Shown here piece by piece: positions 16,840-48,260 of a stretch of 64,000 nucleotides of DNA; the first letter of the stretch is position 1, and the number at the start of each line of letters is the position of its first letter. A model generated the notes under the pieces. It did not search any database, was not told where the DNA came from, and worked only from the letters and a program-made list of their open reading frames with translations. Origin of the DNA: Microgenomates group bacterium GW2011_GWC1_46_15 (GTDB lineage Bacteria; Patescibacteriota; Microgenomatia; UBA1400; UBA12028); the NCBI GenBank assembly GCA_001002285.1, contig LCLX01000001.1, forward strand, positions 64,030-128,029, written 5' to 3'. A program made the position numbers and the translations under genes.

Positions 16840-16872
16840 TACGCTTGAGAAAGAACGGGAAAGAACATTTTT

Positions 16873-18840
16873 ATGGAAAAACAGACGAAAAAGCACATGA
16901 AGCATGACGTAAAGACTCCAGCACCTGCGCAGGAAAAATCTTCGCAACCCCAATCTACTCCGCAAGCTCAACAGACTCCGCGCAATGGCAGGCAAATCAA
17001 ACGTATCGAAATTCAAGTCGGCATGGATCCGCGCAAAATGTTAACGTGGGCGCTCATTGGATTACTTTTTATCCCATACATTATTGCTTTACTCAATGGC
17101 AGTGGCAATGAAAAAATTGCGCTTTCTCAACTTGTGAATGATGTGCGGGATCAAAAAGTGCAAAAGATTAAGATCATGGGGCAAAATATTGAAGTGCAGT
17201 ACAAGGATGGAAGCAAGAAAATCTCGCGCAAAGAAGATAGTCAAAATCTTGTTGAGGTTATGAAGGCTTCGGATATTGATCCGGCGCAGGTTGAAACGGA
17301 AATCATCACGCCGTCAGCACTCTCGCAGTTGTTCACATTTTTTGTGAGTTATATGCTTCCCGCGCTTGTTGTTGGCATACTGATTTTGATTGTGATGCGT
17401 CGGCAGATGGGTGGTGACTCCGGTATTTTTGCGATTGGTAAATCGAAAGCGAAACTATTTAACAAAGGCAAACAGAATGTAAAGTTTTCCGATGTTGGAG
17501 GTTTAACAGAAGCCAAGCGCGAACTCGAAGAAATTGTAGACTTTTTGAAGAATCCAAAAAAATACCGCGATGTGGGTGCGCGCGTTCCAAAAGGAGCGCT
17601 TTTAGTTGGCCCAAGCGGAACGGGCAAAACGATGCTTGCTCGAGCCGTAGCCGGAGAAGCCAACGTCCCGTTTTTGTCCATGGCTGGCTCAGAGTTCATG
17701 GAGATGTTGGTCGGCGTTGGTGCTTCCCGCGCCCGTGATTTATTTGAAACGGCAAAGCGCGTCGCCCCCTCTATTATTTTCATTGATGAAATTGATGCAA
17801 TCGGCCGTATGCGCGGATTTGGTTCGATGGGCGGACACGATGAGCGCGAGCAAACGCTCAACCAGATTTTAGTTGAGATGGACGGATTTACACCAAACGA
17901 TACAGTAATTGTACTGGCAGCAACAAACCGTGGCGACTTGCTCGACCCTGCGTTAGTCCGGCCGGGACGCTTTGACCGGCGTGTCACCCTCGACCTTCCG
18001 GATCTTGAAGAACGCAAGTTTATTCTTCGCATCCACGCAAAAAACAAACCATTTATCAAGGATTTGATTTGGGAAAAAATTGCTAAGCGCACTGTTGGTT
18101 TCTCCGGCGCCGATCTTGAAAACATGCTCAACGAGGCGGCCATTCTTATCGCGCGTGAAGGACGGACAAGTATTACGGCAAAAGATATTGAAGAGGCGGC
18201 ACTCAAAGTTAAACTTGGCCCGGAAAAGAAAAGGCTCCAGTCGGATTACGAAAGAAAAATGACCGCGTATCACGAGGGTGGGCACGCTATTTTGGCCCAC
18301 TACTTGCCAAACACCGATCCTGTGCACCGCATTTCTATTGTGTCGCGTGGCCGTGCGCTTGGATTTACGATGACGCCGCCGGAAACCGATAAGTATCAGC
18401 AAACACAGTCTGAGTTAGAAGATGAGATTGTTGTACTGTTGGGCGGTCGTACTGCGGAAAAATTAATCTTCAACGAGCTCACTGGCGGAGCAAGTAGCGA
18501 TATTGACCATGCAACGCGCATTGCCCGTGCAATGGTGATCGACTATGGGATGTCCAATCTTGGCCCAGTGAATCTTGGCCCGCAGTATGATGTTTCGGAC
18601 TATGGTCGCTCAATGTATGAACCACCAAAGTTGAGTGACGACATGCAGGCAAAAGTTGACAAGGAAATCAGTCAAATTATTACTATTGCAATGAAAAAGG
18701 CAGAAGTGCTTTTGGCAAAATATAGGAAAGAACTTGATAAAGTTGCAGCAAAGTTGCTCGAAGTTGAAACGCTTGAAGGCGAAGAATTTGAAGCCCTGCT
18801 TGACTCGAAGAAAACAAAACCAAAACACACGGGTATGTGA
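16873..18840 (+). CDS. ftsH: ATP-dependent zinc metalloprotease FtsH
   Basis: AAA+ [18 protein letters not shown], Walker [10 protein letters not shown], second region of homology, and zinc motif HEGGHA. Confidence 0.92.
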
Positions 18841-33298: not shown

Positions 33299-33561
33299 GT
33301 GGCCAGACTATGTAAAGAATAATGAGATCGCTCGCTGTGTGGAATGTGGACGCCCCTATATGTAGGTAAAAACAGTATGAGGGCGACGAACGTATGATCG
33401 TTATACACGCACTTTTTTCACCGGTCAACGGAATCTTTATATATCATCATGCATCATCCTTCTGCGTTGACCCAACTCCCGCCATGTGATACACTACCGC
33501 AGGTCATTGAACGGTATAAGAAGAGGTGGGGTTTCCCGCCTTTTTGTTTCTAAGGAGCACT

Positions 33562-35034
33562 ATGGCAACACTACAGCACGCACAAATGCGATCGGATTTT
33601 TCAATTGCGCTCAACCAAATCGCAACAGAGCGGGGTATTGAACCAGACATTGTTCTCAAATCAATTGAGGAGGCAATTGTCGCGGCATACAAAAAAGACA
33701 TGAATATTGCCGCCGATGATGAAGTTGCGATTGACGTTTCTTCCGTTGAGTATGACGACAAAGCCATCCCCGCTGTGAAATCTGATCCAGGCGTTTCGTA
33801 TGTTGGGCAGCTTGATCCAGTGACCGGCGAAGCAAAAGTATTCAAACTTGATGGAAAAAAGAAAACAGACGTAACCCCCGCAGGCTTTGGGCGCATTGCG
33901 GCACAGACTGCAAAACAAGTCATTCTCCAAAAAGTCCGCGAAGCAGAAAAAGACGCGGTTATTAAAGATTTCACCACAAAAATCGGAACAATTATGGCAG
34001 GTATGATTGTCCGCTACGACGGCAAAAACGTCATTGTGGACATCGGCCGTGGCCAAGGATACATGCCGCCGGAAGAGCAGATGCGCGGCGAGTTTTACCG
34101 CATTGGTTCCCGTCTCACTGTGTATATTGCAGACATCCGCGAAACCATGCGCGGCCAAACAATTATCGTGTCGCGCGCAGCCAAAGAGTTGGTTGTTGAG
34201 TTGTTCCGCCGAGAAGTTCCAGAAGTTGCTTCTAATGCGGTTGAAGTAAAAGCAATTGCCCGCGAAGCAGGCGTGCGCACAAAGATTGCGGTGTTTTCAT
34301 CGCAGACAGGTGTTGACCCGGTTGGTTCATGCGTTGGTCAAAAAGGTGTTCGTGTACAAGAAGTCATCCGTGAACTGAACAACGAAAAGATTGACATCAT
34401 TCAATACACCGAAACACCAAAATTATTTCTTGAAGCAGCACTTGCTCCAGCCGAGAACTTGTTGATTGATATTGATGAAAAGAAGCATTCTGCGAATGTT
34501 ACATGTCCAGACGACCAAGTGTCGTTGGCAATTGGCCGCGGCGGGCAGAACGTGCGCTTAGCCGCTAAGCTGACAGGATACAAAATCAGCATTAAGTCGG
34601 CTTCCGGTGTTCAGGCCGCAACCGCGACCGGCGACGAAGAGTTTGAGATTGATCAGCTCCCACTTACGCCTGAAATCCGCACAATGCTTGTTGAAAAGGG
34701 ATACACGATGTTGTTCCAGCTCCGAGAGCATTTTGCAGAAGTTGAAGCAATTGATGGAGCAAAGAAAAAAGATGTAGATGCATTGAGAAAATCATTGGAG
34801 GCTGGTCAGCCAATACGGCCAGTTGAACCGGTTGTGGCGGTAGTTGCTCCAACAGCGCCGGTTGCAGAAGAGCCAGCAGTTGCAGAAGAGCCAGTAACTC
34901 CGGTAGTTGCGCCAGCAGTAGAAGTGGCACCTATGGCTGCAGAAGCAGCTCCAGTTGTCGTAGCGCCCACGGTGGAAGAAGTAAAGCCCATTGAAGAAGT
35001 GAAACCAGTCATTGAAGAGGCTAAACAGCAATAG
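33562..35034 (+). CDS. nusA: transcription termination/antitermination factor NusA with P/A/V/E-rich C-terminal tail
   Basis: MATLQHAQMRSDFSIALNQIATERGIEPD..., the S1 and KH regions, and RBS AAGGAG at 33552. Confidence 0.9.
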   Translation: MATLQHAQMRSDFSIALNQIATERGIEPDIVLKSIEEAIVAAYKKDMNIAADDEVAIDVSSVEYDDKAIPAVKSDPGVSYVGQLDPVTGEAKVFKLDGKKKTDVTPAGFGRIAAQTAKQVILQKVREAEKDAVIKDFTTKIGTIMAGMIVRYDGKNVIVDIGRGQGYMPPEEQMRGEFYRIGSRLTVYIADIRETMRGQTIIVSRAAKELVVELFRREVPEVASNAVEVKAIAREAGVRTKIAVFSSQTGVDPVGSCVGQKGVRVQEVIRELNNEKIDIIQYTETPKLFLEAALAPAENLLIDIDEKKHSANVTCPDDQVSLAIGRGGQNVRLAAKLTGYKISIKSASGVQAATATGDEEFEIDQLPLTPEIRTMLVEKGYTMLFQLREHFAEVEAIDGAKKKDVDALRKSLEAGQPIRPVEPVVAVVAPTAPVAEEPAVAEEPVTPVVAPAVEVAPMAAEAAPVVVAPTVEEVKPIEEVKPVIEEAKQQ

Positions 35035-35084: not shown

Positions 35085-36614
35085 ATGGCAATGCAAGAAC
35101 GACCACCCGTCGTTACAATCATGGGTCATGTCGATCACGGCAAGACCTCGCTTCTTGATGCGATTCGCAAAACATCCGTTGCCGCAAAAGAAACCGGCGG
35201 TATTACTCAGCACATCGGTTCCTACCAAATTCAGCACAAAACCAAAACAATCACTTTTATTGATACACCAGGCCACGCAGCGTTTTCCGCGATGCGTTCC
35301 CGTGGCGCTCAGGCAACCGACATCGTCATTCTCGTGGTTTCTGCAGCCGAAGGTGTAAAACCGCAAACGGTTGAGTCCATTCAGCACATTAAAAAGGCTG
35401 GCGTCCAGTATCTTGTGGCGTTGACAAAAATGGACTTGCCGGATGCCAACCCGGAAATGGTGAAGGCCCAGCTTACCGAACGCGAAGTATTTGTCGAGGG
35501 ATACGGTGGAGATATCGTGTGCGTTCCCGTCAGCGCGAAAAAGGGCGAAGGGCTAGATAAATTATTAGAAATGGTTTTACTTATTGCTGAACTGGCCGAG
35601 CTCAAAGCGGATCCTGTTGGCGCGCTCCAGGGCGTTGTCATTGAGTCCAAGCGCGACGCACACCGCGGAACATTGGCAACGATTTTGGTGAAAAACGGCA
35701 CGCTCCGTGTTGGCGATACCATCTTTGCGGAACACGTAGAGGCAAGAGTCCGCACAATGCAGACGGCGGATGGTGTTTCGATCAAAGAAGCGGTCCCCTC
35801 AATGCCGGTAGAAATTGTTGGGTGGGAAGGTATTCCAAAGGTGGGGAGTTCGGTTACATCAACAAAACAAGAAGTGATTGCGATAGCGCCCGCCATAGTT
35901 CCGGAACTTCCAGCTGCTTCAACCGCTCCCGCAGTGCAAGAACTTCCTCCTGTAACAGGATTGGCTCTACCCACCGCAGTTACTGTTACCCCAGTTACCG
36001 TCGCTACTCCCGCTCCTGAAGAAAAAGAGAAACCAAAACTTAAGATCATCCTCAAGTCCGACACCGTTGGCACGCTCGAGGCCATTCAAGCCAGTATTGC
36101 GGGCGACGAAATCCTCACAATCTCCTCTGGTGTTGGCGAGATCAACGATGCCGACGTCCTTATGGCAGAGTCAACCGGCGCACGCATCCTTGGATTTAAC
36201 GTAAAAGCAGCAAGTTCAGTCAAGAAAATTGCCGAAACGCACGGTGTCAAACTCAAAACATACACGATTATTTATGACTTGATCGAAGATGTGCAAAAAC
36301 AGGCGCTTAAGCTCATCGAACCCACGATTGACGAAGAGGAACTTGGTTCAGCAGACGTGATTGCGGTGTTCGAGATGAAAGGCGAGCGGATCGCAGGGTG
36401 CAAAATAAAAACCGGCGAGATTACCAAAACCCAGCTCTATCACATCAAGCGTGGCGGCGAAATTATCGCCAACCCCAAGATTAAATCTATCCACCACAAT
36501 AAGCTGGATATTGAGTCCGCCAAGGCGGGCACCGACTGCGGCATTGTGTTCCGCGGTTTTAGCGATGCCCAGATTGGCGATCTTCTTACCTCATACCGCG
36601 TGAAGGATGAGTAG
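35085..36614 (+). CDS. infB: translation initiation factor IF-2 (short form, G-domain onward)
   Basis: VVTIMGHVDHGKTSLLDAIR, DTPGHAAF, ALTKMD, and C-terminal beta-barrels. A P/A/V-rich insert follows the G domain. Confidence 0.9.
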   Translation: MAMQERPPVVTIMGHVDHGKTSLLDAIRKTSVAAKETGGITQHIGSYQIQHKTKTITFIDTPGHAAFSAMRSRGAQATDIVILVVSAAEGVKPQTVESIQHIKKAGVQYLVALTKMDLPDANPEMVKAQLTEREVFVEGYGGDIVCVPVSAKKGEGLDKLLEMVLLIAELAELKADPVGALQGVVIESKRDAHRGTLATILVKNGTLRVGDTIFAEHVEARVRTMQTADGVSIKEAVPSMPVEIVGWEGIPKVGSSVTSTKQEVIAIAPAIVPELPAASTAPAVQELPPVTGLALPTAVTVTPVTVATPAPEEKEKPKLKIILKSDTVGTLEAIQASIAGDEILTISSGVGEINDADVLMAESTGARILGFNVKAASSVKKIAETHGVKLKTYTIIYDLIEDVQKQALKLIEPTIDEEELGSADVIAVFEMKGERIAGCKIKTGEITKTQLYHIKRGGEIIANPKIKSIHHNKLDIESAKAGTDCGIVFRGFSDAQIGDLLTSYRVKDE

Positions 36615-36628: not shown

Positions 36629-36895
36629 TTAAGGCTTATACACTTCTTTGCGATGAGCAATGCGCATGATAGAAATATGTTGATTTGATTTTTGCTTATG
36701 TACCACGTAAATAATGCGGTAATCACCCGAACGTAAACGGTAAGTATCGCGTTCTCCATGAAGCTTTTTACATCCGTGTGGAAACGGTTCATTCGAGAGA
36801 AGATCGATTTTTTTAACAATTTGAAACTTGTTGCCTGAGGGAAGTTTGAGTAATGCACGCTTTGCCGAGGGAATAATGGTGACTATGGCGGGCAT
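36629..36895 (-). CDS. RelE/ParE-family toxin
   Basis: 88 aa. YRLRSGDYRIIYVV...ISIMRIAHRKEVY follows the RelE/ParE pattern. Abuts a Phd/YefM-like gene. Confidence 0.7.
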   Translation of the reverse strand: MPAIVTIIPSAKRALLKLPSGNKFQIVKKIDLLSNEPFPHGCKKLHGERDTYRLRSGDYRIIYVVHKQKSNQHISIMRIAHRKEVYKP

Positions 36896-37164
36896 TAAAG
36901 ATAATCCTCCGCCTTAAATGGAACTGCCTTTTTTAATTCTCCCGCAGCTATTGCCCGACGTACCTCCGCAGCATCTCCCTTGTCGTAAAATCCGTTGGCA
37001 TATTTCTCGAGGTATTCAAGATATTCCGGGTCAACCAGAGCAGCTTTTGGCTTACTATTTTGCACAATAATAATAGGCTCAATTGCCGATGTAAGCCGAT
37101 CAAGCCAGGCGTTAAGGTTCTGGCGAAAATCGGTAACAGATACAATATTTTGTACAGTAAACAT
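36895..37164 (-). CDS. Phd/YefM-family antitoxin
   Basis: 89 aa. N-terminal VSVTDFRQNLNAWLDRL...PIIIVQNSKPKAALV is the Phd/YefM signature. Confidence 0.65.
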   Translation of the reverse strand: MFTVQNIVSVTDFRQNLNAWLDRLTSAIEPIIIVQNSKPKAALVDPEYLEYLEKYANGFYDKGDAAEVRRAIAAGELKKAVPFKAEDYL

Positions 37165-37360: not shown

Positions 37361-38392
37361 ATGATTGTTCCACAGGACGTGGTCTCACTCAAAGAGGTGT
37401 TCCAAAAAGCTCAAACGGCGTACGTGCTGATCAGCAGTTTTCCTACGTATGACAGTGTCGCCTCAGCCCTTGCGCTGTACTTTGCGCTCACTGATGCGGG
37501 TAAAGACGTCCATATCGCCTGTCCCGCACCCATGCGTGTCGAGTTTTCCCACCTATTTGGCGTGGATAAAATCAGCGAAAAAATGGGCAACCGTAACCTG
37601 ATGGTTTCGTTCGATTACGAGGAAAACAGTGTCGAGAAGGTCAGTTACACGATCAGCGATGACGGAAAAAAGTTTAACCTCATTATTTCGCCAAAAACCG
37701 GTGGCCGGTCACTTGATCCTGCAAAGATCGAGTACTCACACACGGGCGCCGAAGCAGATCTCGTGTTTATGGTTGGCGTTTCCCAGTTTGAAGATCTTGC
37801 CGAGTTCTATGAAAACGAGCGTGGATTGTACACAAGCGCCTACACCGTTGCCATTTCTCCATATGAAACCACACCGTTTGCTGCATTGACGCTGAACACC
37901 GAAGGCCAGTCGTGTATTTCAGAAGGCATGACCGTGTTGTTGAAGGAACTTGGGATAAATCCGCATGATGACGTTGCAACCAACCTCTTGTCTGCGATGG
38001 AGCAGGCCACCAACCGTTTCCAGTCGCTTGGCATGACCGCCGAAACATTTGATCTGGTTGCGTACCTATTGCGCAATGGCGCCCGCCGGTCTACACCTAT
38101 CACAATGAATCCCGCGCTCAATCCTCACGTTTCGGGTTCGACTCCTTCATTTGCTGAGGTTTTGCGTGCTCGGGCACAAGGCCAACCTATCCCAGTAATG
38201 CCGGTGCAGCCGATGCTCGTAACACAACCAATGATGTCGGGCCAGCCCGGAATAACAGGCCAGCCAGGTGTGCAAAATCAAAACGTCATTCACCAACTCC
38301 AGCATGAAGAACAGCACATCGTTCAGCCAACCCAACCTGCGCCAGACGAATGGACCAAGCCAAAGATTTTTACGGGGAAGACAATGGTGTAA
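37361..38392 (+). CDS. DHH/DHHA1-like protein with degenerate catalytic motifs (NrnA-like fold suspected)
   Basis: AYVLISSFPTYDSVASALALYFAL parallels the NrnA N-terminus, but the DHH and GGGH motifs are absent. Q/P-rich C-terminus. ATG chosen because the -10 box lies inside the longer TTG-initiated ORF. Confidence 0.35.
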   Translation: MIVPQDVVSLKEVFQKAQTAYVLISSFPTYDSVASALALYFALTDAGKDVHIACPAPMRVEFSHLFGVDKISEKMGNRNLMVSFDYEENSVEKVSYTISDDGKKFNLIISPKTGGRSLDPAKIEYSHTGAEADLVFMVGVSQFEDLAEFYENERGLYTSAYTVAISPYETTPFAALTLNTEGQSCISEGMTVLLKELGINPHDDVATNLLSAMEQATNRFQSLGMTAETFDLVAYLLRNGARRSTPITMNPALNPHVSGSTPSFAEVLRARAQGQPIPVMPVQPMLVTQPMMSGQPGITGQPGVQNQNVIHQLQHEEQHIVQPTQPAPDEWTKPKIFTGKTMV

Positions 38393-38436
38393 AAAAACTA
38401 CCATTTTCTCTAGAACATTCCCAAACTTGACAAGAA

Positions 38437-38451
38437 GTGTGTGTGTGTGTG
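38437..38451. repeat. (GT)7 dinucleotide microsatellite between a TTGACA hexamer (38427-38432) and the RBS of the first gene of the 38.5-44.3 kb operon
   Basis: gtgtgtgtgtgtgtg, read directly. Confidence 0.8.
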
Positions 38452-38483
38452 ATGCTGATGTTACGAGATATTAAAGGAGCGTT

Positions 38484-39350
38484 ATGGCTTTTACCCCAGA
38501 TCAAGTACGGCAGAGCATTGAGTCTTCAGCCGCAAACCCAGACCAATTAAGTACGGATCTTGCAAAAGAGCTTACACAAGATCGTTCTGAGCAAGTAGCA
38601 GCAAATTTAAAACTCGATGAAGTTTACGCCCAACTAGAAGGATTAAATCCTTCTGCGCGCATCGCCGAGTTAGCGCGTTTGGCAATTGGAGGAATTGGCG
38701 AGTTTGCGAAGGGGTATAGTAAACACCTTGAGAAGTCGGGTGAAGGAAGAAAGAAAAAGAAAGAACAGTATCAAGCGACTGTAGAGAAAACGCGTGGTCG
38801 CTGGGAAAAAATGGAAGAAAAAATGCGATTGAGAGAGGTCGCAGATAGAGCGGTAAGCAGGATTATGCAGGATGATGAGTACTTCGTTGGAAGGGATCGG
38901 GGGAGATTTGGACGCATAAAAGGTTGGGCAGAGCGTGGAAGAAAATGGATAGAAGAAAAAACAATAGGATTCCCCGAGTGGAGATCAAGAGTTAATGCGA
39001 AAAAAGAACAACAACATCTTGAGGGTGCAGCCAAGTATGCTCGACTTGCAGAAAAGCTGGGAGTAGTGAGTGAAGAAATAAGAAAACTGTTCAAAGAGAT
39101 GGATGCTGATGCAAGTCGGACAGCCTCGGGCAATCTTAATGAAGCAATGACGGAAGAACAGCGAACTGGTGCTAATGTTACCCAAACAGAACAGATGTTT
39201 GGGAAATCAATGAGTCCTGCCGCAGAAGCAATAGGTGAAGCGACTCGTGCCGCAATAAAGCAAATGAATCCCACAGATACATTGGCTCAAGGACAGCGCG
39301 CAGAACAAGGAATTTCGGAACAAGCACAACAAGTACAAAATGAGTATTAA
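38484..39350 (+). CDS. hypothetical highly charged coiled-coil protein (operon gene 1)
   Basis: 288 aa. No TM segment and no catalytic motif. K/E/R-rich. RBS AGGAG four nt upstream. Confidence 0.5.
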   Translation: MAFTPDQVRQSIESSAANPDQLSTDLAKELTQDRSEQVAANLKLDEVYAQLEGLNPSARIAELARLAIGGIGEFAKGYSKHLEKSGEGRKKKKEQYQATVEKTRGRWEKMEEKMRLREVADRAVSRIMQDDEYFVGRDRGRFGRIKGWAERGRKWIEEKTIGFPEWRSRVNAKKEQQHLEGAAKYARLAEKLGVVSEEIRKLFKEMDADASRTASGNLNEAMTEEQRTGANVTQTEQMFGKSMSPAAEAIGEATRAAIKQMNPTDTLAQGQRAEQGISEQAQQVQNEY

Positions 39351-39364
39351 ATAACGGAGAATAT

Positions 39365-39589
39365 ATGGATAAAATTGTGCAAATTATAGAGGAACTCACA
39401 CAGACGATACTTTCAGATACAATGTTGGATGAGTCAACAAAAAGCACCCTTTTAGATCTTGCTGGAGAGGTTTCTCAAGATCCGACACCAGAAAATGTTA
39501 AGGCGCTTGTTCTTACATTGAAAACGCTTTCTAAAACAGAGAGATATCTCACCGCACTTGAAACATTGACCAATCTTTCAGCGGATTAG
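39365..39589 (+). CDS. hypothetical small acidic protein (operon gene 2)
   Basis: 74 aa, starting 14 nt after gene 1. Confidence 0.4.
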   Translation: MDKIVQIIEELTQTILSDTMLDESTKSTLLDLAGEVSQDPTPENVKALVLTLKTLSKTERYLTALETLTNLSAD

Positions 39590-39668
39590 CCTTTTTCTTT
39601 CTCATATTGACTCTCTTTATGTGTAATGAAATACTACTGGTATTCTTCTTGTATGGTGAGGGAGATTT

Positions 39669-42110
39669 ATGGCTGAAGAGATGCACAGTAGTGACTACGA
39701 AAAAGCGAAAGCTGATGCTACGAGTAAAGTTGCAGAAATAACGGCACAAAAAAACCAACTCGGAATGAGTGTTGAGGACGCACAACGCCAACAACAAAAC
39801 TTGCGTGATATTTCAACGAAATTAAGCGAGCAGGAGCAAAAAGCTGGAGAAGTTCATAACGAACTCACTACACTTGACGTCAAAAGAAAGCTGTATCAGG
39901 AATTATTTACAAAACGCCAGAGAACAATAACTGAGGAAGAACAAAGATTACGACAAATAGAAGAGAGACTATCCGTTAAAGAGAAAAACTTTTTTGTGAG
40001 AGTTATAAATAATCCGCAAACCCCATCACTTCTGAGAGATTTAGCAAGAGGAATGTCTCAAAACACAATAGACTATGAATCCGAGAAGGAACGACGCGCT
40101 CAAACAATGAATGTTCTCAGGGCTTTTGAGGCAATGGCAGTAGAAGACGAAAAAAACCTAGAAGAATTATCAATAAAAAGAACGAAGATTGAAGAACAAC
40201 TTGAACAAGTCCAGGGCGTTGCTGCAGAACTTGCTCGGCAAAAAGGAGAAGTAGAATCTTCCCCAGATGCCCAACGCGCAACCCTTGTTCTTGAAATGCA
40301 GCAAACGCTCGAAAAAGCAGAACAGGAACTTGAGCGTATTTCTGGAGAGGAACAAAAATATTGGAAGAGCTACAAAGAGAACATGTTTAATGATCTTGGT
40401 ATTACAGAAGAGGATGTAAAGAAGTGGGAAGAAGATGCTATTAATGTTCGCAAGAAGATAGAGGCGAGGAGTCCAGAGGAGAAAACGGAAGCAGAGGATA
40501 AAATTGTCGAAGGTATGGATATTGGGAGAACGAGAAGACTTTGGATTACAAATAACCCATACGAAACTGCAGTTGACGTTCGGTATAACGAAAAAGGCGA
40601 AGAAAGACCCCTTATTGAATCAGCTGACAACCTTTCCCGGCGCGCACTTTCTGCTGTTGAGTATTTCAAACATATGAGAGAATTGGCAAAAGAACATCAA
40701 GCTAACCTTCCTGGAATTATTGAACAAAGGCAGGAGTATTATGATGGCCAGGTTCGTGAGCTCTCTGAAGCAAAAAGAAAAGAGCTGTATGCCAAATTCG
40801 GGGTTCCTACAGATGAAGAATATAAAGCGCGCGTAAATGAAATACGGGAAAATGGAGTGTTGCTGGAAAATATTGATCAACTGCAGTGGGAAGCAGACAC
40901 GTTTGGGACAAAAGCGAAAAAAGATAAATTACAAAAAGCGCTAGGAAGAATTGAAAAGGAAGTTGACGCATATAACAAACAAATACAAGCATTAAAAGAT
41001 CAAGCACAAAAAGAACTTGAACAGTGGGTTGAAGAAGAACTGAAGCCATTATTAAAATATTTAGCCGCTGATATGGCAAACTCCATAGAACATACTTGGG
41101 AAACATTCGAACATCTTCCAATGAATGCGAAACAAATGATAGCGAGTGGAGAATATGATACCGCTCTTACTCAGGCTGAGGCTGTTACACAGAATGTAGA
41201 CAAACTCCGCGCGTTATTTACAGAAAAAGATGAGATTCTTGGAAAACTTAGTGAAGTTATTCTTGAACAAGAAAAAGAGATGGAGCAAGTTTCACAAAAA
41301 ATGAAATCTCTTCGAGATAGAATGGAAGAACTTCAAATGCAAGTTAATGGTATGGAAGATATGCTTGCGACCATTCCATCAAGATCAACGAAGCAAAGAA
41401 GATCAATAGAGTTAGTAAGGCGGGGATTTAAGGAACAGATTGAAATTGGAAGGCGCGATTTAGCAAAATTTGAAAAGTTACGAGTCAGAGCACTGGAGCA
41501 ACAAAAACAAATTTTGGATGCAGAAAAAGCAAAGTACTATCCCGTAGAACTTCTTGGTGGGAACCTTTTTGGTGATGAAGAGGGGGGAGAAGTTGCAGAA
41601 ACATATAAAGCCTCTATGTATGGAAAGTCTGGAGTAGAAATTGCAAGAAAAGTAGGGAACGAACAAATAAGATTGAAAGTAGATGGTCAGTTAACCGATT
41701 GGGAACAATTGCGCCAGGGAATTGAGAATGATATACAAGAATTTGTTCAAAAAAAGAAGGAAGAAGAACAGAAAGCGCGTGAACGAGCAGAGGGAACTGA
41801 AGCGCAAAAAAGGGCAATAGAGCTTGTTGAACAAATGAGGAGTTCAAATGAAGAACTTTTGAATCTTATGTTAACAACAGAATTTAACAACGAACATCCT
41901 GCAAATAATCAAGAAATCGTACAACAAGTTGCAAAAGACATGGATACTGTTATGGATTGGGTTGACGCCGTTGGTGATGATGAGGTAAAACGGAAAAAGC
42001 TAGCGGATGTTCTTGGGGCAATGGCGAAAGTTCTTGATGAGGGTGGTGAGTATAGAAGAATGAAAAAAACACTTGAAAACTTATCAGCCGGACTCCGATC
42101 CAGCACATGA
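39669..42110 (+). CDS. hypothetical 813-aa coiled-coil protein (operon gene 3)
   Basis: E/K/Q-rich with heptad character throughout. No Walker motifs seen, so not an obvious SMC/Rad50 ATPase. Confidence 0.55.
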   Translation: MAEEMHSSDYEKAKADATSKVAEITAQKNQLGMSVEDAQRQQQNLRDISTKLSEQEQKAGEVHNELTTLDVKRKLYQELFTKRQRTITEEEQRLRQIEERLSVKEKNFFVRVINNPQTPSLLRDLARGMSQNTIDYESEKERRAQTMNVLRAFEAMAVEDEKNLEELSIKRTKIEEQLEQVQGVAAELARQKGEVESSPDAQRATLVLEMQQTLEKAEQELERISGEEQKYWKSYKENMFNDLGITEEDVKKWEEDAINVRKKIEARSPEEKTEAEDKIVEGMDIGRTRRLWITNNPYETAVDVRYNEKGEERPLIESADNLSRRALSAVEYFKHMRELAKEHQANLPGIIEQRQEYYDGQVRELSEAKRKELYAKFGVPTDEEYKARVNEIRENGVLLENIDQLQWEADTFGTKAKKDKLQKALGRIEKEVDAYNKQIQALKDQAQKELEQWVEEELKPLLKYLAADMANSIEHTWETFEHLPMNAKQMIASGEYDTALTQAEAVTQNVDKLRALFTEKDEILGKLSEVILEQEKEMEQVSQKMKSLRDRMEELQMQVNGMEDMLATIPSRSTKQRRSIELVRRGFKEQIEIGRRDLAKFEKLRVRALEQQKQILDAEKAKYYPVELLGGNLFGDEEGGEVAETYKASMYGKSGVEIARKVGNEQIRLKVDGQLTDWEQLRQGIENDIQEFVQKKKEEEQKARERAEGTEAQKRAIELVEQMRSSNEELLNLMLTTEFNNEHPANNQEIVQQVAKDMDTVMDWVDAVGDDEVKRKKLADVLGAMAKVLDEGGEYRRMKKTLENLSAGLRSST

Positions 42111-42119
42111 TGGAAATCC

Positions 42120-44003
42120 ATGACAGAGGCTCCCCCAACTCCTCCGTTAGAAGCGGAAACAGATATACAGACAGAACGACAATCTCCGAAGCTCGTTATT
42201 TCTTCAGAAAGAGTAAAACAATTTAGAGGAAAATACCCTCATATTGTTACCATGCGGGAAGCGATGCTTTCTGATCTAGAGCAAGATGAATCACAATTTG
42301 ATGCAAGTGTTGTTGGCAAAGACGTTGCTCGAGCAAATTTTAAACGATATGTTGATGAGATTCGCTCCTCTCCCCTTACAACAATTCCATCTTTTGAAGA
42401 GATGCAAGAGTTTTTTTCACAGCCCACCAAATCCCAGGAAATTCCTGATGAGGAGGTTGTGGACGATACCGATCTTGATGAAAGAATTGTTCAATTTTGG
42501 AAAGAATATGATGATGTCAAAAATGCATTCACGAATGTATCCGTGACTATAGATCCCTCCGTTGCAGAGTATGTAAATTCTCAATTCGCTCAAATAGATC
42601 AGTTATCAGAGCTGAGTCTTTTTACAAGAGAGAATGTAGCTCGTGCGGAAGAAAAATTAGCAACAATACGTCGAAAATTAGATGAGCATTCTGGTGAAAC
42701 ACAACGGAAAGCTGAAGAATTAAAACAAGATCTTCAAAACAGGGTTCAGGCCGTTAGGACTCAACTCGAGGCATGGAAGGATAAGTTCGATCCAGATGAC
42801 TATCAATCTATTTTGGAAGAGTGTGTGTATTTGGAAAGTGAAATGAATTCCGCCGTACTTGCTCGACTTAACTATATTAATCTTAGATTGGCTCACCTCG
42901 AAACTAAAGTTTCACAAAGTATTAATGCAATGATTGAAGATATCGAAAGAGCCCAAAGAACGTTTCCTGAGGTACTACGAGATTTTCTTAAAGAAACGAA
43001 AAACGCAAAAGGGAAAAATATTGTTGAGGGAGTAATGAATAAGATTTTTGGTAAAAATGAAAAGGAACATCAAGAAAAACTCGCACATTATTTATCGTTT
43101 TTGTTAGGTCTATGCACTTCTTATGGATTGCTTCACGCAGGACACGTTGATGCAGGCCTGAGTTTTAATTTTGCAGTATTCTCAGAAGTTTTTTCCGGAC
43201 TTGCACAACTTACAATAAGTCGAGGAATGCAAGAGCGTGTTGAAATGCTCGAGTATCATCCTCGTGCGAAAAAGATTTTTGGTTCTCTTGCAGAGAAACA
43301 TACGATTTCTTCTCTCATGGGAAGAAGTAGAGAAATTAGTAAGTATGTGTGGTCGGGTATCCACGGTATTGCGGCTGGGGCGGTTTTGCACACGGGATCA
43401 ACTTTTATTGAAAACGCTATGAATACAAGCGCGCATCAACACAAAGAAGTCGCATCACTTACAGGGAAAGCCCATCAAGAACAACCGGTACAGCCGCAAG
43501 GTGATGGAGGTACCTCGACTGGAACGGGTGGAGAAACGGGGGAAGCAGGGGGAATTCCACCAGCCGAAACTCCAACGGTGGGACCACTAAGCGAACCAGT
43601 AAATATCAATACTATGGTGAGTCAAACAGAAGTTGATTTTATTGGGAAATTAGGACATACAGATTTTCCCCGTGCGAGCATGAATCTTCTGGATCACATT
43701 GACCACGCAATTGCCGAAATCAATGGCATTGATCTTACACGTCTCGCCCAAAACACAACGATAGAACTTTTTAATAGAACATATGCTAAAGAAGCCATAC
43801 AAGCCTTACAGAGTGCGCTCCACGAACTTCCAAAAAATGTGCAACTCTATCAAATTCCAATGGACTGGCCAGCTGGTAAACGGTATCTTGTAGAAACGGC
43901 ACTTTCTGGCTATGTCCGAACAGACCCCATGTATCAAGGATTACAACCCATAAACATGGAACATATAAAGGCGATTATTGAGTATTTGAATACATTACAT
44001 TAA
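42120..44003 (+). CDS. hypothetical 627-aa protein with central hydrophobic segments and a G/T-rich linker (operon gene 4)
   Basis: Coiled-coil N-terminal half. Hydrophobic stretches LAHYLSFLLGLCTSYGLLHAG and VWSGIHGIAAGAVLHTG. Low-complexity GDGGTSTGTGGETGEAGG. Confidence 0.5.
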   Translation: MTEAPPTPPLEAETDIQTERQSPKLVISSERVKQFRGKYPHIVTMREAMLSDLEQDESQFDASVVGKDVARANFKRYVDEIRSSPLTTIPSFEEMQEFFSQPTKSQEIPDEEVVDDTDLDERIVQFWKEYDDVKNAFTNVSVTIDPSVAEYVNSQFAQIDQLSELSLFTRENVARAEEKLATIRRKLDEHSGETQRKAEELKQDLQNRVQAVRTQLEAWKDKFDPDDYQSILEECVYLESEMNSAVLARLNYINLRLAHLETKVSQSINAMIEDIERAQRTFPEVLRDFLKETKNAKGKNIVEGVMNKIFGKNEKEHQEKLAHYLSFLLGLCTSYGLLHAGHVDAGLSFNFAVFSEVFSGLAQLTISRGMQERVEMLEYHPRAKKIFGSLAEKHTISSLMGRSREISKYVWSGIHGIAAGAVLHTGSTFIENAMNTSAHQHKEVASLTGKAHQEQPVQPQGDGGTSTGTGGETGEAGGIPPAETPTVGPLSEPVNINTMVSQTEVDFIGKLGHTDFPRASMNLLDHIDHAIAEINGIDLTRLAQNTTIELFNRTYAKEAIQALQSALHELPKNVQLYQIPMDWPAGKRYLVETALSGYVRTDPMYQGLQPINMEHIKAIIEYLNTLH

Positions 44004-44011
44004 GGAAAAAT

Positions 44012-44323
44012 ATGGCAGATACATCAGGTATTGTCCGTTGGATTGAACTGTTAAAGCAACAGGGAAAAACTGAAGAAGAAATTCAGAACGCTCTTATGGA
44101 TTTGAAGAACATGAGTTCACTAAATGTGTATACAACACTTGCAATAACTTTCACAGAAGATGAGTTAAAACAGATTGAAAGTATTACAGATGACCAAGGG
44201 GCAGAGAAAAAAGTTGAAGAAATGTTTCTTGCAAAGACAGGAATGAGTATTGCTGATCTTGTAAAGAGTGTTCAAGATGGGGTGGCAGGGCACGCCGTTC
44301 AGCAATTGCAAAAGAAAAGTTAG
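44012..44323 (+). CDS. hypothetical small protein (operon gene 5)
   Basis: 103 aa, 8 nt after gene 4. Confidence 0.4.
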   Translation: MADTSGIVRWIELLKQQGKTEEEIQNALMDLKNMSSLNVYTTLAITFTEDELKQIESITDDQGAEKKVEEMFLAKTGMSIADLVKSVQDGVAGHAVQQLQKKS

Positions 44324-44351: not shown

Positions 44352-44360
44352 TGGTATAAT
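44352..44360 (+). promoter_or_regulatory. extended -10 TGGTATAAT for rpsO, with an about 90-nt leader
   Basis: ccagataTGGTATAATaccc. Confidence 0.45.
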
Positions 44361-44454
44361 ACCCCCAATACTATTCGACTAGATACTTTTCTGTCTTGCG
44401 TTTCTCCGTATACAACGACTGAAACATTCAAGCTCGGCAGACAAGGGAGGACAT

Positions 44455-44724
44455 ATGGCACTCAATGTAACTGCCAAGAAAAAAATTATTCAGGACTTCG
44501 CCACAAAAAAAGGCGATACTGGTTCACCAGAGGTGCAGGTTGCACTTCTCACCGAAAAAATCAATCTTCTCACTGACCATTTGAAGAAACACCGCAAGGA
44601 CAATCACTCCCGCAAAGGTTTGCTGAAGATGGTTGCAAAGCGTCGCAGACTGCTCAACTTCCTTGAGCGCAAAGACGCAAAGCGGTACAATGAACTTCTC
44701 AAGCGGTTAAAGTTGGAAAAGTAA
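44455..44724 (+). CDS. rpsO: 30S ribosomal protein S15
   Basis: [51 protein letters not shown]. Confidence 0.9.
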
Positions 44725-44770: not shown

Positions 44771-45112
44771 ATGCAAAGAGTTTCTGCCTTGAGTGTACAG
44801 CATACTGTTTCCACACCTCTTCCTCGTGCTTTTTATACATATTTTTGGGATATCTCACCGAAAAACATTGATGTCCAGAAACATACAAAATATATTATTG
44901 AGCGCATCATGACGTGGGGAGATGAAACTGCGTGTAGGTGGATGCACAAAACTTTTAGTTTAGAAAGTATTCGTGAAACACTGAAAACTTCAAGGAACTT
45001 GGACAAAAAAACCGCGGTCTTTTTCTCGTACATCTATGATGTTTCCCAAAAGGAGGTGCGATGTTTACAGAAACAGTCTCCCCCGAGACCAAGCGCATTT
45101 TGGCCCTATTAG
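44771..45112 (+). CDS. hypothetical protein, possible partner/antitoxin of the downstream AbiEii-like gene
   Basis: 113-aa ORF with an extended -10 TGATATAAT (44755-44763) only 7 nt upstream. Overlaps the next gene by 52 nt. Confidence 0.3.
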   Translation: MQRVSALSVQHTVSTPLPRAFYTYFWDISPKNIDVQKHTKYIIERIMTWGDETACRWMHKTFSLESIRETLKTSRNLDKKTAVFFSYIYDVSQKEVRCLQKQSPPRPSAFWPY

Positions 45113-45690
45113 CAAAAGAGCCATTTGTCCGTAAATACTATCTTGCTGGTGGGACTGTGCTCGCATTGCACTATGGTCATCGTATCTCATACGATCTTGA
45201 TTTTTTTAGCCAAACTCCCGAGGAAAAACATATCATTGTAGACCGATTAACTGCATTGGGAAAAGTATTCATTAAACAGAATGATCAAGGAACATTTAAT
45301 GGGATTCTCGATGATGTAAAGATTAGTTTTTTCATCTATCCCTATCATCTTTTAAAACCGACAACACGAGTATTGGATGTTGAAACCGCAAGTTCATTGG
45401 ACTGTGCATGTATGAAACTTGACGCAATCGGATCGCGCGGATTAAAAAGAGATTTTTATGACCTCTACATGATTTTACATGAATATACACTCGACGAACT
45501 TTTGCATGCGTTCAAAGAGAAATATAAGACGGCAAGTACGGACCCATTCCATGTTCTTCGGAGTCTTACATATTTTATTGATGCAGAGGAAGATGAAGCA
45601 ATCAATCTCCTTAAACCACTCGAATGGGATACAGTAAAAACTTTCTTTATCAAACAAGTGAGTAGCTTTACACGGGAACGTCTGGTATAA
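45061..45690 (+). CDS. nucleotidyltransferase AbiEii/AbiGii-like toxin family protein (DUF1814-type)
   Basis: KRILALLAKEPFVRKYYLAGGTVLALHYGHRISYDLDFF is the family's N-terminal signature. Confidence 0.6.
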   Translation: MFTETVSPETKRILALLAKEPFVRKYYLAGGTVLALHYGHRISYDLDFFSQTPEEKHIIVDRLTALGKVFIKQNDQGTFNGILDDVKISFFIYPYHLLKPTTRVLDVETASSLDCACMKLDAIGSRGLKRDFYDLYMILHEYTLDELLHAFKEKYKTASTDPFHVLRSLTYFIDAEEDEAINLLKPLEWDTVKTFFIKQVSSFTRERLV

Positions 45691-45836: not shown

Positions 45837-48260
45837 ATGAAGAAACCAAGTGTTTCAAACGTGTATTCCAAAACCGTCCACGTGGGCGGAAAAGAAATTA
45901 AACTCGAGGTCGGAAAGTTTTCCGAACAGGCCGCGGCCGCTGTATTGGCGACATGTGGCGAAACGGTCGTGCACGCAACAGTCGTGGGTGGCCGCGAGAG
46001 TACATTGGACTACTTCCCATTGCAAGTTGAGTATGTTGAAAAGCTCTTTGCCGGTGGGAAAATTAAAGGTTCACGATGGGTTAAGCGCGATGGTCGTCCA
46101 AACGATGACGCTGTGTTAAAAGGTCGTCTTATTGACCGTGCGATCCGCCCGTTGTTTCCCGAAGGTTTGAAGAACGAAGTGCAGGCAATTGCGACAGTGC
46201 TTTCGGTTGATAATGCAAACGATCCAGACATGGTTGCGATGGTCGCTATTTCCACTGCACTCTCAATTTCCAACATTCCATGGGATGGCCCAATCGCGGG
46301 TGTCCGCATGGGATATGTCAAAGAATTCAAAGAATTTTTGTTGAATCCGACATACGAAGAGCGCGCAAAATCGCAGTTAGATTTGGTAGTTGCGGGTTCT
46401 AAAGACGCGATTGTGATGGTTGAGTCCGGCGCGGATGAAGTAACAGAAGACGTGATGATTGACGCGCTCGCGAAAGCGCACGAAGCGATCGTTGGCGTTG
46501 TCGTAGATCTCGAAAAAATGGTCAAAGACATTGGACAGGAAAAGTTCACGTTTACACCCGTGGTTGCAGACGAAGCATTGGTAAAAACACTCGGAAAAAA
46601 GTATGCAAAAGAAATAAAAGAGTTCGTGAAACATGAAGCACTGCTTGAACCGGTTGGCGTGAGCGAGCTGGTTACCACGATGATTGCCGAAGATGAAACA
46701 CAAGATGTTGGCAAACTTAAAGAAGCATTCCACGTGTTGATTAAAGAAGAAGCGCGCCGCCAGACTTTAGAAGATAAACTTCGCCCGGATGGCCGCAAAC
46801 TTGATGAGATCCGCCAAATCACGTGTGAAGTAGACATTTTGCCACGGCCGCACGGGTCGGCAATGTTCAAGCGCGGATCCACCCAAGCATTAACAATTAC
46901 GACATTGGGTGCCCCATCATTGGGCCAACTCATTGAAGACATGGAGGGTGAGGAAGAGAAACACTACATTCATCACTACGAAATGCCGCCGTATGCTTCG
47001 GGTGAAGCCGGCCGTTTGGGAAGCCCGCGCCGCCGCGAAATCGGGCACGGTGCTTTAGCCGAGCGCGCGTTGTTCCCGATGATTCCCGCGCAAAACGAGT
47101 TCCCGTACACGATTCACGTTGTTTCAAGCATTATGAGTTCGAATGGTTCAACATCAATGGCTTCGGTGTGCGGAAGCACGATGTCGCTGATGGCCGCCGG
47201 TGTTCCAATCAAAAAACCGGTTGCCGGTATTGCGATGGGATTAATGACCGATGGCAAGAAGCACGTTGTCCTTTCCGACATTCAAGGAATGGAAGATCAC
47301 ACAGGCGACATGGACTTCAAAGTTGCGGGAACAAAAGATGGTATCACCGCGCTCCAAATGGATATCAAGGTGAAAGGAATTTCAGTTGATATTTTGCGCA
47401 CAGCACTTGGCCAAGCAAAAGACGGCCGATTGTTCATTTTAGGCAAGATGCTCGAAGCAATTGCTGAACCACGCAAGACATTATCGAAGTACGCGCCAAA
47501 GATTGTTCAGATTGAAGTTCCATTCGACCGCATTGGCGAGTTGATTGGCCCGGGCGGCAAGGTGATTAAAAACATCATCGCGACAACTGGTGCGCAGGTT
47601 GATGTCGAAGAAAATGACGAGAAAACAAAAGGCATTGTGAACATTTCTTCACAGGATGATGAAGCGATTGAAAAAGCCCGTGCATGGATCAGCGGTATGA
47701 TGCGCGATGTTGTTGCCGGCGAAGAGTTTGACGGTATCGTAACACGGATTGAAAACTTCGGCATTTTTGTCGAGTTCTTGCCAGGCCGCGACGGACTTGT
47801 ACACGTTTCGCGCATGAGTACTGAGTATGTTTCCGATCCACACGTGTTGTTTAAGATTGGTGACTCCGCGCATGTTCGGTTAACTGAAGTTGACGACCAA
47901 GGCCGGTACAACCTCACGATGCTCACAAAAGAGCAGGAAGAGGCGGCCCGCGCAAAACGCAGTAGCGAAGGAAGTGGAGAAGGCCGCGGAGGAAGTGGTT
48001 ATGGTGGCGGTAGCTCCTCTGGAGGATTCGGTGGTGGCGGACGCAGCTTTGGCGGAGACCGTGGTGGCAGCCGGGGCGGATACGGTGGCGGCCGAGGTGG
48101 ATCAGGTGGTGGCTATGGTGGTGGACGAAGCTTTGGCGGTGACAGAGGCGGTCGTGGTGGATTTGGCGGAAGCCGTCCCAGCTTTGGATCAGGCGGCGCA
48201 GGTGCGAACTCCGGCGGCGAACGTAAATCTCCAGGATATGCTGCGCAAAAGCAGTACTAA
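45837..48260 (+). CDS. pnp: polynucleotide phosphorylase with an about 100-aa RGG/GYGG low-complexity C-terminal tail
   Basis: Two RNase PH domains, KH and S1 regions (GDSAHVRLTEVDDQGRYNLTM), then GSGEGRGGSGYGGGSSSGGFGGGGRSFGGDRGGSRGGYGGG... Confidence 0.9.
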   Translation: MKKPSVSNVYSKTVHVGGKEIKLEVGKFSEQAAAAVLATCGETVVHATVVGGRESTLDYFPLQVEYVEKLFAGGKIKGSRWVKRDGRPNDDAVLKGRLIDRAIRPLFPEGLKNEVQAIATVLSVDNANDPDMVAMVAISTALSISNIPWDGPIAGVRMGYVKEFKEFLLNPTYEERAKSQLDLVVAGSKDAIVMVESGADEVTEDVMIDALAKAHEAIVGVVVDLEKMVKDIGQEKFTFTPVVADEALVKTLGKKYAKEIKEFVKHEALLEPVGVSELVTTMIAEDETQDVGKLKEAFHVLIKEEARRQTLEDKLRPDGRKLDEIRQITCEVDILPRPHGSAMFKRGSTQALTITTLGAPSLGQLIEDMEGEEEKHYIHHYEMPPYASGEAGRLGSPRRREIGHGALAERALFPMIPAQNEFPYTIHVVSSIMSSNGSTSMASVCGSTMSLMAAGVPIKKPVAGIAMGLMTDGKKHVVLSDIQGMEDHTGDMDFKVAGTKDGITALQMDIKVKGISVDILRTALGQAKDGRLFILGKMLEAIAEPRKTLSKYAPKIVQIEVPFDRIGELIGPGGKVIKNIIATTGAQVDVEENDEKTKGIVNISSQDDEAIEKARAWISGMMRDVVAGEEFDGIVTRIENFGIFVEFLPGRDGLVHVSRMSTEYVSDPHVLFKIGDSAHVRLTEVDDQGRYNLTMLTKEQEEAARAKRSSEGSGEGRGGSGYGGGSSSGGFGGGGRSFGGDRGGSRGGYGGGRGGSGGGYGGGRSFGGDRGGRGGFGGSRPSFGSGGAGANSGGERKSPGYAAQKQY

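Follow-up and report, generated by a model that had tools for sequence, protein, structure and literature searches.

What are the five genes lodged ahead of rpsO in the nusA-infB-rpsO-pnp cluster of a Microgenomates group bacterium, and do they belong together? The DNA analyzed is a stretch of 64,000 nucleotides (nt), referred to below as the window, from Microgenomates group bacterium GW2011_GWC1_46_15 (assembly GCA_001002285.1, contig LCLX01000001.1, positions 64,030 to 128,029 of the forward strand). Within it, a cluster of the order nusA-infB-DHH-like-slot-rpsO-pnp hosts five co-directional open reading frames (ORFs) on the + strand, here named A to E. A preliminary description had placed ORFs of 288, 74, 813, 627 and 103 amino acids (aa), with gaps of 8 to 79 nt, between a DHH-like gene and rpsO, all of which proved exact, and had read them as a single five-gene operon. 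That unit does not hold: the cassette shared by six lineages, this one included, comprises just C, D and E, and A and B are without a detectable homologue in any relative recovered. Judged by sequence comparison, C-D-E is a real, co-inherited, tightly coupled, non-enzymatic-looking three-gene module of very narrow distribution. The slot and its borders are laid out as follows.

37361-38392, + strand: DHH-like gene, left border of the variable slot, with an alternative TTG start at 37331
38484-39350, + strand: gene A, ORF of 288 aa, with an AGGAG ribosome-binding site
39365-39589, + strand: gene B, ORF of 74 aa, with a GGAG ribosome-binding site
39669-42110, + strand: gene C, ORF of 813 aa, first gene of the C-D-E cassette
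42120-44003, + strand: gene D, ORF of 627 aa, second gene of the cassette
44012-44323, + strand: gene E, ORF of 103 aa, third gene of the cassette
44455-44724, + strand: rpsO (Pfam Ribosomal_S15), right border of the slot (right-border feature 44352-44724)

Gaps of 14, 79, 9 and 8 nt separate the five genes; the spacer from the DHH-like gene to A is 91 nt long and that from E to rpsO 131 nt. A GGAG-like ribosome-binding site lies 5' of each of the five ATG starts. The tight packing of C, D and E makes co-transcription possible, and the three genes are probably translationally coupled.

Relatives were located through the DHH-like neighbor, which has 149 homologues in Patescibacteria, and then through the contigs that carry those homologues. 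All of the relatives keep the order nusA-infB-DHH-like-slot-rpsO-pnp, and the contents of the slot vary. In three lineages (L007, L008 and L009), the slot holds genes of ~880, 370-490 and 102-107 aa that are homologous to C, D and E by BLAST (E down to 4e-23) and by profiles. Two more, reached through HMMER relatives of D, carry infB, the DHH-like gene, a gene for a 993-aa protein, D and E (L015) and a large gene, D, E, rpsO and pnp (L016). C-D-E is always found in this slot, with gaps of 1-39 nt between C and D (except in L007) and of 3-12 nt between D and E. Outside these lineages the cassette is scarce. When 1.84 billion cluster representatives were searched exhaustively with HMMER, only three relatives of D turned up besides its own fragment, and no confirmed relative came from the GTDB representative genomes (searched with the DHH-like protein and the D alignment) or from JGI metagenomes (searched with the E and D alignments). 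The six-sequence D alignment (A6) is too divergent for deriving search patterns.

The cassette proteins differ far more between lineages than the proteins encoded on either side of them. Relative to the window, identities are 63-68% for IF2, 65-72% for NusA, 75-86% for S15, 68-75% for PNPase and 45-59% for the DHH-like protein, as against 22-25% for C, 22-30% for D and 24-37% for E. Between lineages overall, C is 16-25%, D 18-30% and E 22-40% identical, compared with 62-77% for IF2; L008 and L009 share 77% of their IF2 residues, yet their C proteins are ~23-25%, their D proteins 26-28% and their E proteins 33-36% identical. By these figures, the divergence of C-D-E is close to saturation, and slot contents diverge several-fold faster than the flanks. 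The D and E trees nevertheless recover the host groups, with the window, L007 and L015 on one side and L008 and L009 on the other, so that C-D-E has descended mainly vertically within one Microgenomates-type subclade of Patescibacteria.

Vertical descent of one cassette type coexists with complete replacement elsewhere. L015 and L010 are 95% identical in IF2 and 92% identical in the DHH-like protein, yet their slot contents (5.1 kb and 5.7 kb) are unrelated. Their DNA aligns at 82-86% identity as far as the stop codon of the DHH-like gene and then ends; similarity returns at 95%, 60-75 bp past the last cassette gene and upstream of rpsO. In place of C-D-E, the L010 slot (11429-16960) contains four genes for proteins of 892, 125, 618 and 198 aa, which show no DNA or protein similarity to the cassette. 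The same left border recurs between the window and its closest relative, L017: nucleotide identity is 92% up to 38391, at the DHH-like stop codon, and the remaining 67 bp of L017 do not align. Slots of more distant lineages encode proteins of 531 and 112 aa, of 473 aa, of 96 aa, or a Cys-rich protein of at least 816 aa. At least six different contents are found among eleven lineages, in slots of 0.3-6 kb. No integrase, tRNA or repeat was found at the slot borders, and the alternative slot proteins have no match in Pfam, NCBIfam or PADLOC. Comparison by hhalign revealed no distant homology between C, D or E and the proteins that fill the L010 and L011 slots. The slot is a replacement hotspot, a feature that the preliminary description had missed, and the content between the DHH-like stop codon and the region upstream of rpsO can be swapped wholesale.

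Several of the alternative occupants have features of envelope proteins. In L014, the slot gene (11155-13602) is cut off by the end of the contig; its product is signal-anchored, has ~75 cysteines arranged in Cys-rich repeat modules as well as Pro/Thr linkers, and is clearly an extracellular or surface protein. Slot proteins with clearer transmembrane (TM) helices occur in L012 and L010. Separately, the 618- and 198-aa proteins of L010 have a C-terminal domain in common (36% identity, E 4e-28); no family match was found. In L007, an extra gene of 875 aa (7413-10040) begins 6 nt after E, where rpsO would be expected; it matches nothing in Pfam, NCBIfam or PADLOC, and the contig ends before the right flank.

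The G+C content of the block had been judged by eye to be lower than that of its neighbors, and calculation bears this out. Per-gene G+C is 0.38-0.45 in the block, compared with 0.46 in the background and 0.44-0.51 in the immediate neighbors. The dip is due to third codon positions and not only to a Glu/Lys/Gln-rich composition: G+C at third positions (GC3) is 0.30-0.34 in all five genes (0.336 in A and 0.32 in B). For comparison, 21 background genes of the window have 0.458 +/- 0.042, while infB, rpsO and the DHH-like gene reach 0.52-0.56. Slot genes of L007, L008, L015, L016 and L010 show the same dip relative to their flanks. Low GC3 is a standing property of slot occupants in most relatives and not a mark of recent transfer. 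Recent horizontal acquisition as the cause of the low G+C was rejected, given this recurrence and a cassette phylogeny that tracks the host.

Genes A and B stand apart from the cassette. No homologue of either was detected in the slot of any recovered relative or in database searches, and both are extra genes added in the window lineage, where alone they have been found so far. Protein A (deposited as hypothetical protein KKT97841) is charged and helical, with heptad runs that cover 0.48 of its length compared with 0.13 in shuffled sequences. B encodes a small acidic protein and is the weakest gene call of the five. An A-rich tract, GAAAGAAAAAGAAAG, lies in gene A at 38746-38763, and two fragments from other assemblies (P0127 and P0128) lose frame exactly there, which is probably sequencing or assembly slippage, although it may alternatively be real frameshift variation. 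One explanation is that A and B, and possibly also the N-terminal extension of D described below, are young lineage-specific ORFs without selected function, either born in a permissive intergenic slot or captured by it. The lack of homologues, the divergence of the closest relative's DNA right after the DHH-like stop codon, the frameshifted fragments of A and the mere 74 aa of B are all consistent with this. Conversely, A is a 288-codon ORF in AT-rich DNA, has a ribosome-binding site and carries heptads well above the shuffled level, and both genes are intact and identical in all long assemblies. On balance we consider a functionless origin of A and B rather unlikely. For C-D-E it is no option, since their proteins are conserved across deep divergence.

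Family searches set C, D and E apart from everything with which they were compared. None of the five proteins has a significant match in Pfam, NCBIfam, PHROGs or PADLOC, and a regular-expression search for Walker A/B, HExxH, CxxC and GxSxG motifs found none in any conserved region of A-E; the invariant columns of the C, D and E alignments are likewise without catalytic-type residues. That none of the five proteins carries a recognizable catalytic motif, as had been noted by reading, is therefore borne out by both the motif and the family searches. Among PDB sequences, the family profiles of C, D and E matched nothing but leucine zippers or designed repeats. The preliminary description had named SMC/MukB, phage tape-measure or scaffold proteins, and flotillin or phasin as the families whose detection would argue against a novel system, and the tests for all of these known families were negative. 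No SMC_N, MukB or AAA match was found in Pfam and no Walker A/B motif in A-E, which speaks against membership of the SMC/MukB/Rad50 group; D makes a sub-threshold contact with the coiled coil of NCBIfam Rad50 (E 3.7e-4), scoring 18.6 bits where the cut-off is 700. Flotillin/Band-7, phasin and PspA/Vipp1 (ESCRT-III) families are absent from the Pfam results of all five proteins even at E <= 1. In PADLOC-DB v2, a coiled-coil stretch of D gives the best match (LeoBC, E 3.8e-4, 17.7 bits), A, C and E give none, and sub-threshold contacts with the coiled-coil regions of LeoBC, LeoA and ZorA range from E 4e-4 to 0.05; these do not amount to membership of a defense family.

Phage-directed searches were equally negative. 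The only PHROG match is that of D to a tail tape-measure family (E 1.3e-3), a value that does not support tape-measure or structural membership. A tblastn search of 50,697 phage genomes with C and D returned nothing, a scan of IMG/VR no relative, and a fold search of BFVD with E no match; phage hallmark genes are missing from the block and its flanks. The weak contacts with SlyX, Rad50, LeoA/LeoBC, ZorA, tape-measure proteins, Imm11 and EspC lie far below curated cut-offs and were rejected as noise from coiled coils and composition; the EspC contact is that of protein A in Pfam (E 0.25). The combination of absent synteny with nearby phage hallmarks, which had also been put forward as grounds for abandoning the idea of a novel system, is not seen either, as relatives show synteny and neither phage hallmarks nor phage homologues were found. 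The proposal of a candidate novel system thus survives, with its unit reshaped to C-D-E plus two orphans. By every family test applied, C, D and E represent new families. Literature searches with the accessions gave nothing, and one on coiled-coil proteins of Patescibacteria gave no paper relevant by title or abstract.

Protein C is very acidic (net charge -34), contains 36% D+E+K+R, and has neither a cysteine nor a hydrophobic segment. It had been described as almost entirely heptad coiled coil. The protein is indeed rich in coiled coil, but a simple heptad score places only 61% of it in heptad windows, compared with 12% +/- 6% in shuffled sequences and 40-66% in the C homologues, and several conserved islands, which are non-repetitive, lie mostly outside the heptad runs. 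In the alignment of the family (A3), these are KYWK (~aa 229-232), ETAVDVR..GEERP (~aa 299-314), SGEY..AL..N..KW (SGEY..AL at aa 494-500) and LPVE..G...Y.A.M (aa 625-650). In L007, L008 and L009, the homologue of C is encoded by the first gene in the slot (BLAST E 5e-12 to 4e-23, 22-25% identity), and the 993-aa protein of L015 joins the family at the profile level only (hhalign probability 75%, E 2.5e-5). For the C profile, the PDB matches were confined to leucine zippers.

Protein D is built from four parts. Residues 1-290 form an N-terminal helical extension that is lineage-specific in the alignments (A2, A4 and A6), and it was added in the window lineage. Three conserved Gly/Ala-rich helices follow (aa 321-342, 348-369 and 412-434; nt 43080-43421), then a linker rich in Pro, Thr, Gly and Gln (~aa 455-497; nt 43482-43610) and a conserved C-terminal helical domain of ~130 aa (aa 498-627; nt 43611-44000) with invariant V500, E504, F507, N522, L524, L550, R553, A556 and P610. 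Two hydrophobic segments had been noted before; we find three helices, each weakly hydrophobic, which are kept in all six D proteins and are followed in each by a Pro/Thr-rich linker. Their approximate apparent free energies of membrane insertion (dG_app) are +4 to +7.5 kcal/mol, and their Kyte-Doolittle means over 19-residue windows are 1.1-1.5. Counts of Lys plus Arg around the helices (4 / 0 / 8 / 2) fit a three-span topology with the N-terminus inside and the C-terminus outside. An AlphaFold2 (AF2) model from a four-sequence alignment is all-helical, with a mean predicted local distance difference test score (pLDDT) of 50.6, and is confident only for aa 116-275. The D profile matches the second slot gene in L007, L008, L009, L015 and L016.

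Protein E, acidic and ~100 aa long, is the best-conserved member of the cassette, with invariant W10, G18, D60 and A64. A single-sequence AF2 model shows seven short helices in a bundle (pLDDT 78.8, predicted template modeling score 0.64), for which Foldseek found no significant structural neighbor in PDB (best E 0.77) or BFVD (best E 0.88). Matches of E to designed helical-repeat proteins in PDB were set aside, as no single stretch passes and the score sums an idealized helix-loop-helix motif. Genes for RbfA, YlxP and YlxR usually lie near rpsO, and RbfA and YlxP-type proteins are alpha/beta folds; E as a diverged member of any of the three was rejected, there being no Pfam match and the E model being all-helical. 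A WXG100 substrate of a type VII secretion system was considered for E and B, and neither matches Pfam WXG100; in E, W10 and G18 lie 8 residues apart near the N-terminus, and the model has seven short helices where WXG100 proteins have a hairpin of ~100 aa with W-x-G at its center. A death-domain or CARD-like fold, which is a six-helix Greek-key bundle, was likewise considered as a candidate for E.

The anatomy, distribution and evolutionary behavior of the locus are established by these data; for the function of its products we infer the following, tentatively. The products of C-D-E are predicted to act together as a non-enzymatic, acidic, all-helical structural module at the cytoplasmic membrane or envelope, a reading that we regard as possible and short of probable. 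Its non-enzymatic and helical part draws on the lack of family and motif matches, the invariant columns without catalytic-type residues, the all-helical AF2 models and the heptad enrichment. Its membrane or envelope part draws on the three conserved helices and linker of D, the distribution of Lys and Arg, and the occupants of the L014, L012 and L010 slots. In such a module, C would be a long cytoplasmic coiled-coil scaffold and D would be its anchor, with the N-terminal coiled coil in the cytoplasm and the three weak helices embedded in, or associated with, the membrane. If the N-in/C-out topology holds, the Pro/Thr/Gly-rich linker of D would serve as a spacer of the wall-spanning type and display the C-terminal domain outside the membrane. 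E may assist them as a small adaptor or in the manner of a chaperone. On this reading, an envelope-linked structure would be under diversifying pressure from phages or from contact with host cells, which would account for the fast divergence and the swapping of cassettes, as is likewise seen in flexible genomic islets of other bacteria.

A number of observations weigh against this assignment. Signal peptides are absent from all five proteins, and C-D-E have no homology to any characterized protein. The dG_app values of the D helices compare with -0.7 kcal/mol for a classic TM helix and are too weak for a confident TM prediction, and AF2 confidence is low for the conserved part of D. The putatively external C-terminal domain is the most conserved part of D, whereas an exposed domain under simple diversifying selection should show the reverse. 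Low expression or weak constraint would explain the rapid evolution and the low GC3 just as well. Toxin-antitoxin and Abi modules flank the copy in the window and point to conflict systems, and the comparison covers six lineages only, with star-like, weak trees. A bolder version would make C-D-E an envelope-spanning apparatus of ultra-small Patescibacteria, in which C forms a filament, D anchors it and presents an external domain, and E is the adaptor. The trio would then be encoded in a dedicated, swappable "identity cassette" slot, and the cassette types of L010, L011, L012 and L014 would be functional analogues exchanged under frequency-dependent selection driven by phages or hosts. We rate this version as improbable.

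An intracellular explanation draws on much of the same evidence. C-D-E may serve the cytoskeleton or cell division as a scaffold that stays wholly inside the cell, in the way of crescentin, FilP/Scy, DivIVA or EzrA, and that evolves fast since coiled coils and linkers tolerate substitutions. The long, acidic, heptad-rich C, the absence of signal peptides from all the proteins, the marginal suitability of the D helices for membrane insertion and the vertical inheritance of a cassette co-directional with its housekeeping cluster all suit such a role. Candidate phyla radiation (CPR) genomes also lack many canonical division and shape proteins, which counts in its favor. Full replacement of the cassette in L010, a sister with 95% identical IF2, is nonetheless hard to square with an essential role; the Pro/Thr/Gly-rich linker that follows the hydrophobic helices of D resembles wall-spanning spacers; and no similarity to known cytoskeletal families was found. 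A scaffold confined to the cytoplasm is accordingly an explanation to which we give a small chance.

The surroundings of the window copy raise another alternative, a novel conflict system (anti-phage, abortive-infection or toxin-immunity-like) housed in a defense or integration hotspot, with C as sensor or scaffold, D as membrane-perturbing effector and E as inhibitor or adaptor. Two gene pairs bracket the block in the window and are missing from relatives.

36629-37164, - strand: ParE/Phd pair, between infB and the DHH-like gene
44771-45690: DUF6922/AbiEii pair, between rpsO and pnp

These pairs, wholesale cassette replacement between near-identical flanks, low GC3, rapid divergence, the conserved weakly hydrophobic Gly/Ala-rich helices of D and the sub-threshold LeoBC, LeoA and ZorA contacts in PADLOC all speak for a conflict locus. 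However, no PADLOC match is significant; effector domains, among them ATPase, nuclease, protease and NADase, were not found; and the alternative cassettes are just as devoid of defense-family matches. In addition, most of the subclade's sampled lineages carry this one cassette at one position, and it tracks the host, whereas defense systems are patchy and horizontally shuffled. A conflict system is, in our estimation, unlikely. A prophage or mobile-element remnant with tape-measure-like or scaffold proteins is largely refuted and very improbable, as the weak tape-measure match of D, the low GC3 and the nearby toxin-antitoxin and Abi genes are outweighed by the lack of hallmark genes and of any match in the phage genomes, IMG/VR or BFVD, by borders free of integrase, tRNA and repeats, and by a cassette that is positionally conserved and host-congruent in six lineages.

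Comparison with known systems places the predicted membrane or envelope module among several partial likenesses. Crescentin, FilP/Scy and Helicobacter Ccrp proteins are long, charged, heptad-rich, helical and non-enzymatic, and are often encoded beside partner coiled-coil genes. C fits this description with its 61% heptad coverage and qualifies as intermediate-filament-like in having an extended heptad rod and no enzymatic motif, a feature of composition and architecture only. It differs in having no sequence similarity to these proteins and in carrying conserved non-heptad islands; nor do those systems involve obligatory D-E partners or a genomic slot with replaceable contents. Lineage-restricted, large, non-enzymatic proteins are also known from the terminal organelle of Mycoplasma, a host-associated bacterium with a small genome, where the coiled-coil HMW2 is joined by the acidic, Pro-rich partners HMW1 and HMW3, an arrangement that C-D-E brings to mind. 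No homology to these proteins was detected and no EAGR box or APR domain was identified in C-D-E, and the class of organism and the envelope differ; no attachment organelle is known in Microgenomates.

The slot itself invites comparison with replacement-type flexible genomic islands, such as S-layer and O-antigen cassettes and defense hotspots, with which it shares sharp borders, unrelated contents, low GC3 and fast divergence. Unlike those islands, it is tiny (0.3-6 kb), lies inside a cluster for translation and RNA turnover (nusA-infB-rpsO-pnp) and contains no glycosyltransferase, S-layer or defense domain, and one of its cassette types, C-D-E, persists vertically across deep divergence. Long coiled coils are shared with the SMC, MukB and Rad50 ATPases, but A-E lack Walker A/B motifs, a head and a hinge. 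Phage tape-measure proteins resemble D in being long, helical and fast-evolving with Gly/Ala-rich hydrophobic segments; in contrast to them, D has no phage context or phage homologue and is chromosomal, host-congruent and fixed in position.

A large part of the diversity of bacteria belongs to the CPR, whose proteins are in great part unannotated and among whose genomes orphan coiled-coil genes are common. From this dark matter, C-D-E emerges as a coherent three-gene unit, family-less and without an enzymatic signature, in a precisely bounded replaceable slot of a gene cluster that ranks among the most conserved in bacteria. A co-inherited trio free of enzymatic domains, with near-saturated divergence and clean replacement inside nusA-infB-rpsO-pnp, is unusual and makes the locus directly testable. 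If the products do form a membrane or envelope structure, they would add a new type of cytoskeletal or surface apparatus to those of bacteria, and could bear on host attachment by ultra-small episymbionts or on evasion of phages. Even with a mundane function, the slot, given its sharp borders, its unrelated alleles in sister lineages and a GC3 that is below that of the flanks in most of them, may offer a compact model for the birth, swapping and diversification of orphan genes in reduced genomes.

The left-border gene had been labeled DHH-like. Its position is as described, but the DHH label does not stand: the match to Pfam DHH is sub-threshold (E 0.094, 13.4 bits against a cut-off of 28.1), which gives no ground for membership of the DHH phosphoesterases, and the DHH histidines are missing, with SFDY in their place in the family alignment. 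One invariant Asp remains in the motif I region, and most aspartates of motifs I and II are lost. After a variable Q/P-rich tail, the homologues share a conserved C-terminal P-x-(E/D)-W-x-x-P-K-(I/V)-(F/Y)-x-G. The protein is possibly a non-catalytic derivative of NrnA-type phosphoesterases.

The block has been recovered repeatedly. It is identical on at least 23 groundwater metagenome contigs and in two UBA genomes assembled from metagenomes, and its products are deposited as hypothetical proteins under "Microgenomates group bacterium" (UX00_C0007G0101-0105, KKT97841-45) and also under "Candidatus Pacebacteria." The six long copies retrieved are 100% identical across the block and therefore represent one single population. 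Remaining features of the surroundings are listed here.

33526-35034: nusA, upstream context
35085-36614: infB, upstream context
38437-38450, + strand: (GT)7 microsatellite in the 91-nt spacer before gene A, 3 nt after TTGACA (38428-38433)
44352-44360, + strand: putative extended -10-like element TGGTATAAT, read from the sequence only, in the 131-nt spacer before rpsO
45837-48260: pnp, followed by an AAA/Lon-lid gene, UDG, RNase J and FtsK

The (GT)7 repeat, noted earlier as preceding the block, is confirmed at these positions and occurs nowhere else in the window; 100 shuffles give an expectation of 0. It is unchanged in all six recovered copies, which come from other assemblies of the same population, and is missing from the L017 spacer. 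No acceptable -10 box was found by reading at a suitable spacing from TTGACA, and a promoter scan lists nothing there. A role as a phase-variable promoter spacer was rejected on these grounds, namely the constant length in six assemblies, the absence from L017 and the lack of a usable -10. The repeat is without a demonstrated role and is neither conserved nor polymorphic.

Some further observations concern genes around the slot and elsewhere in the window. The ParE/Phd pair is missing in L007-L015, and L017, the relative with 92% identity, has a Phd gene at the corresponding position. The DUF6922 gene overlaps the AbiEii nucleotidyltransferase toxin gene, whose GC3 is also low (0.34); in relatives, pnp directly follows rpsO. 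PNPase ends in a Gly/Arg-rich (RGG-like) low-complexity tail of ~105 aa (~47930-48260), and an Ala/Pro/Val/Glu-rich tail at the end of NusA (~34800-35034) makes that protein 60-100 aa longer than the NusA of relatives. At 5732-8278, SufB is split by an intein with a LAGLIDADG homing-endonuclease domain, which accounts for a dip in G+C at 7-8 kb. Finally, a 779-aa protein encoded at 57405-59744, beside the alanyl-tRNA synthetase gene, matches the Baseplate_J-like domain (28.5 bits, E 1.2e-6), a domain of phage-tail or contractile-system type that is unexpected in the context of alanyl-tRNA synthetase.

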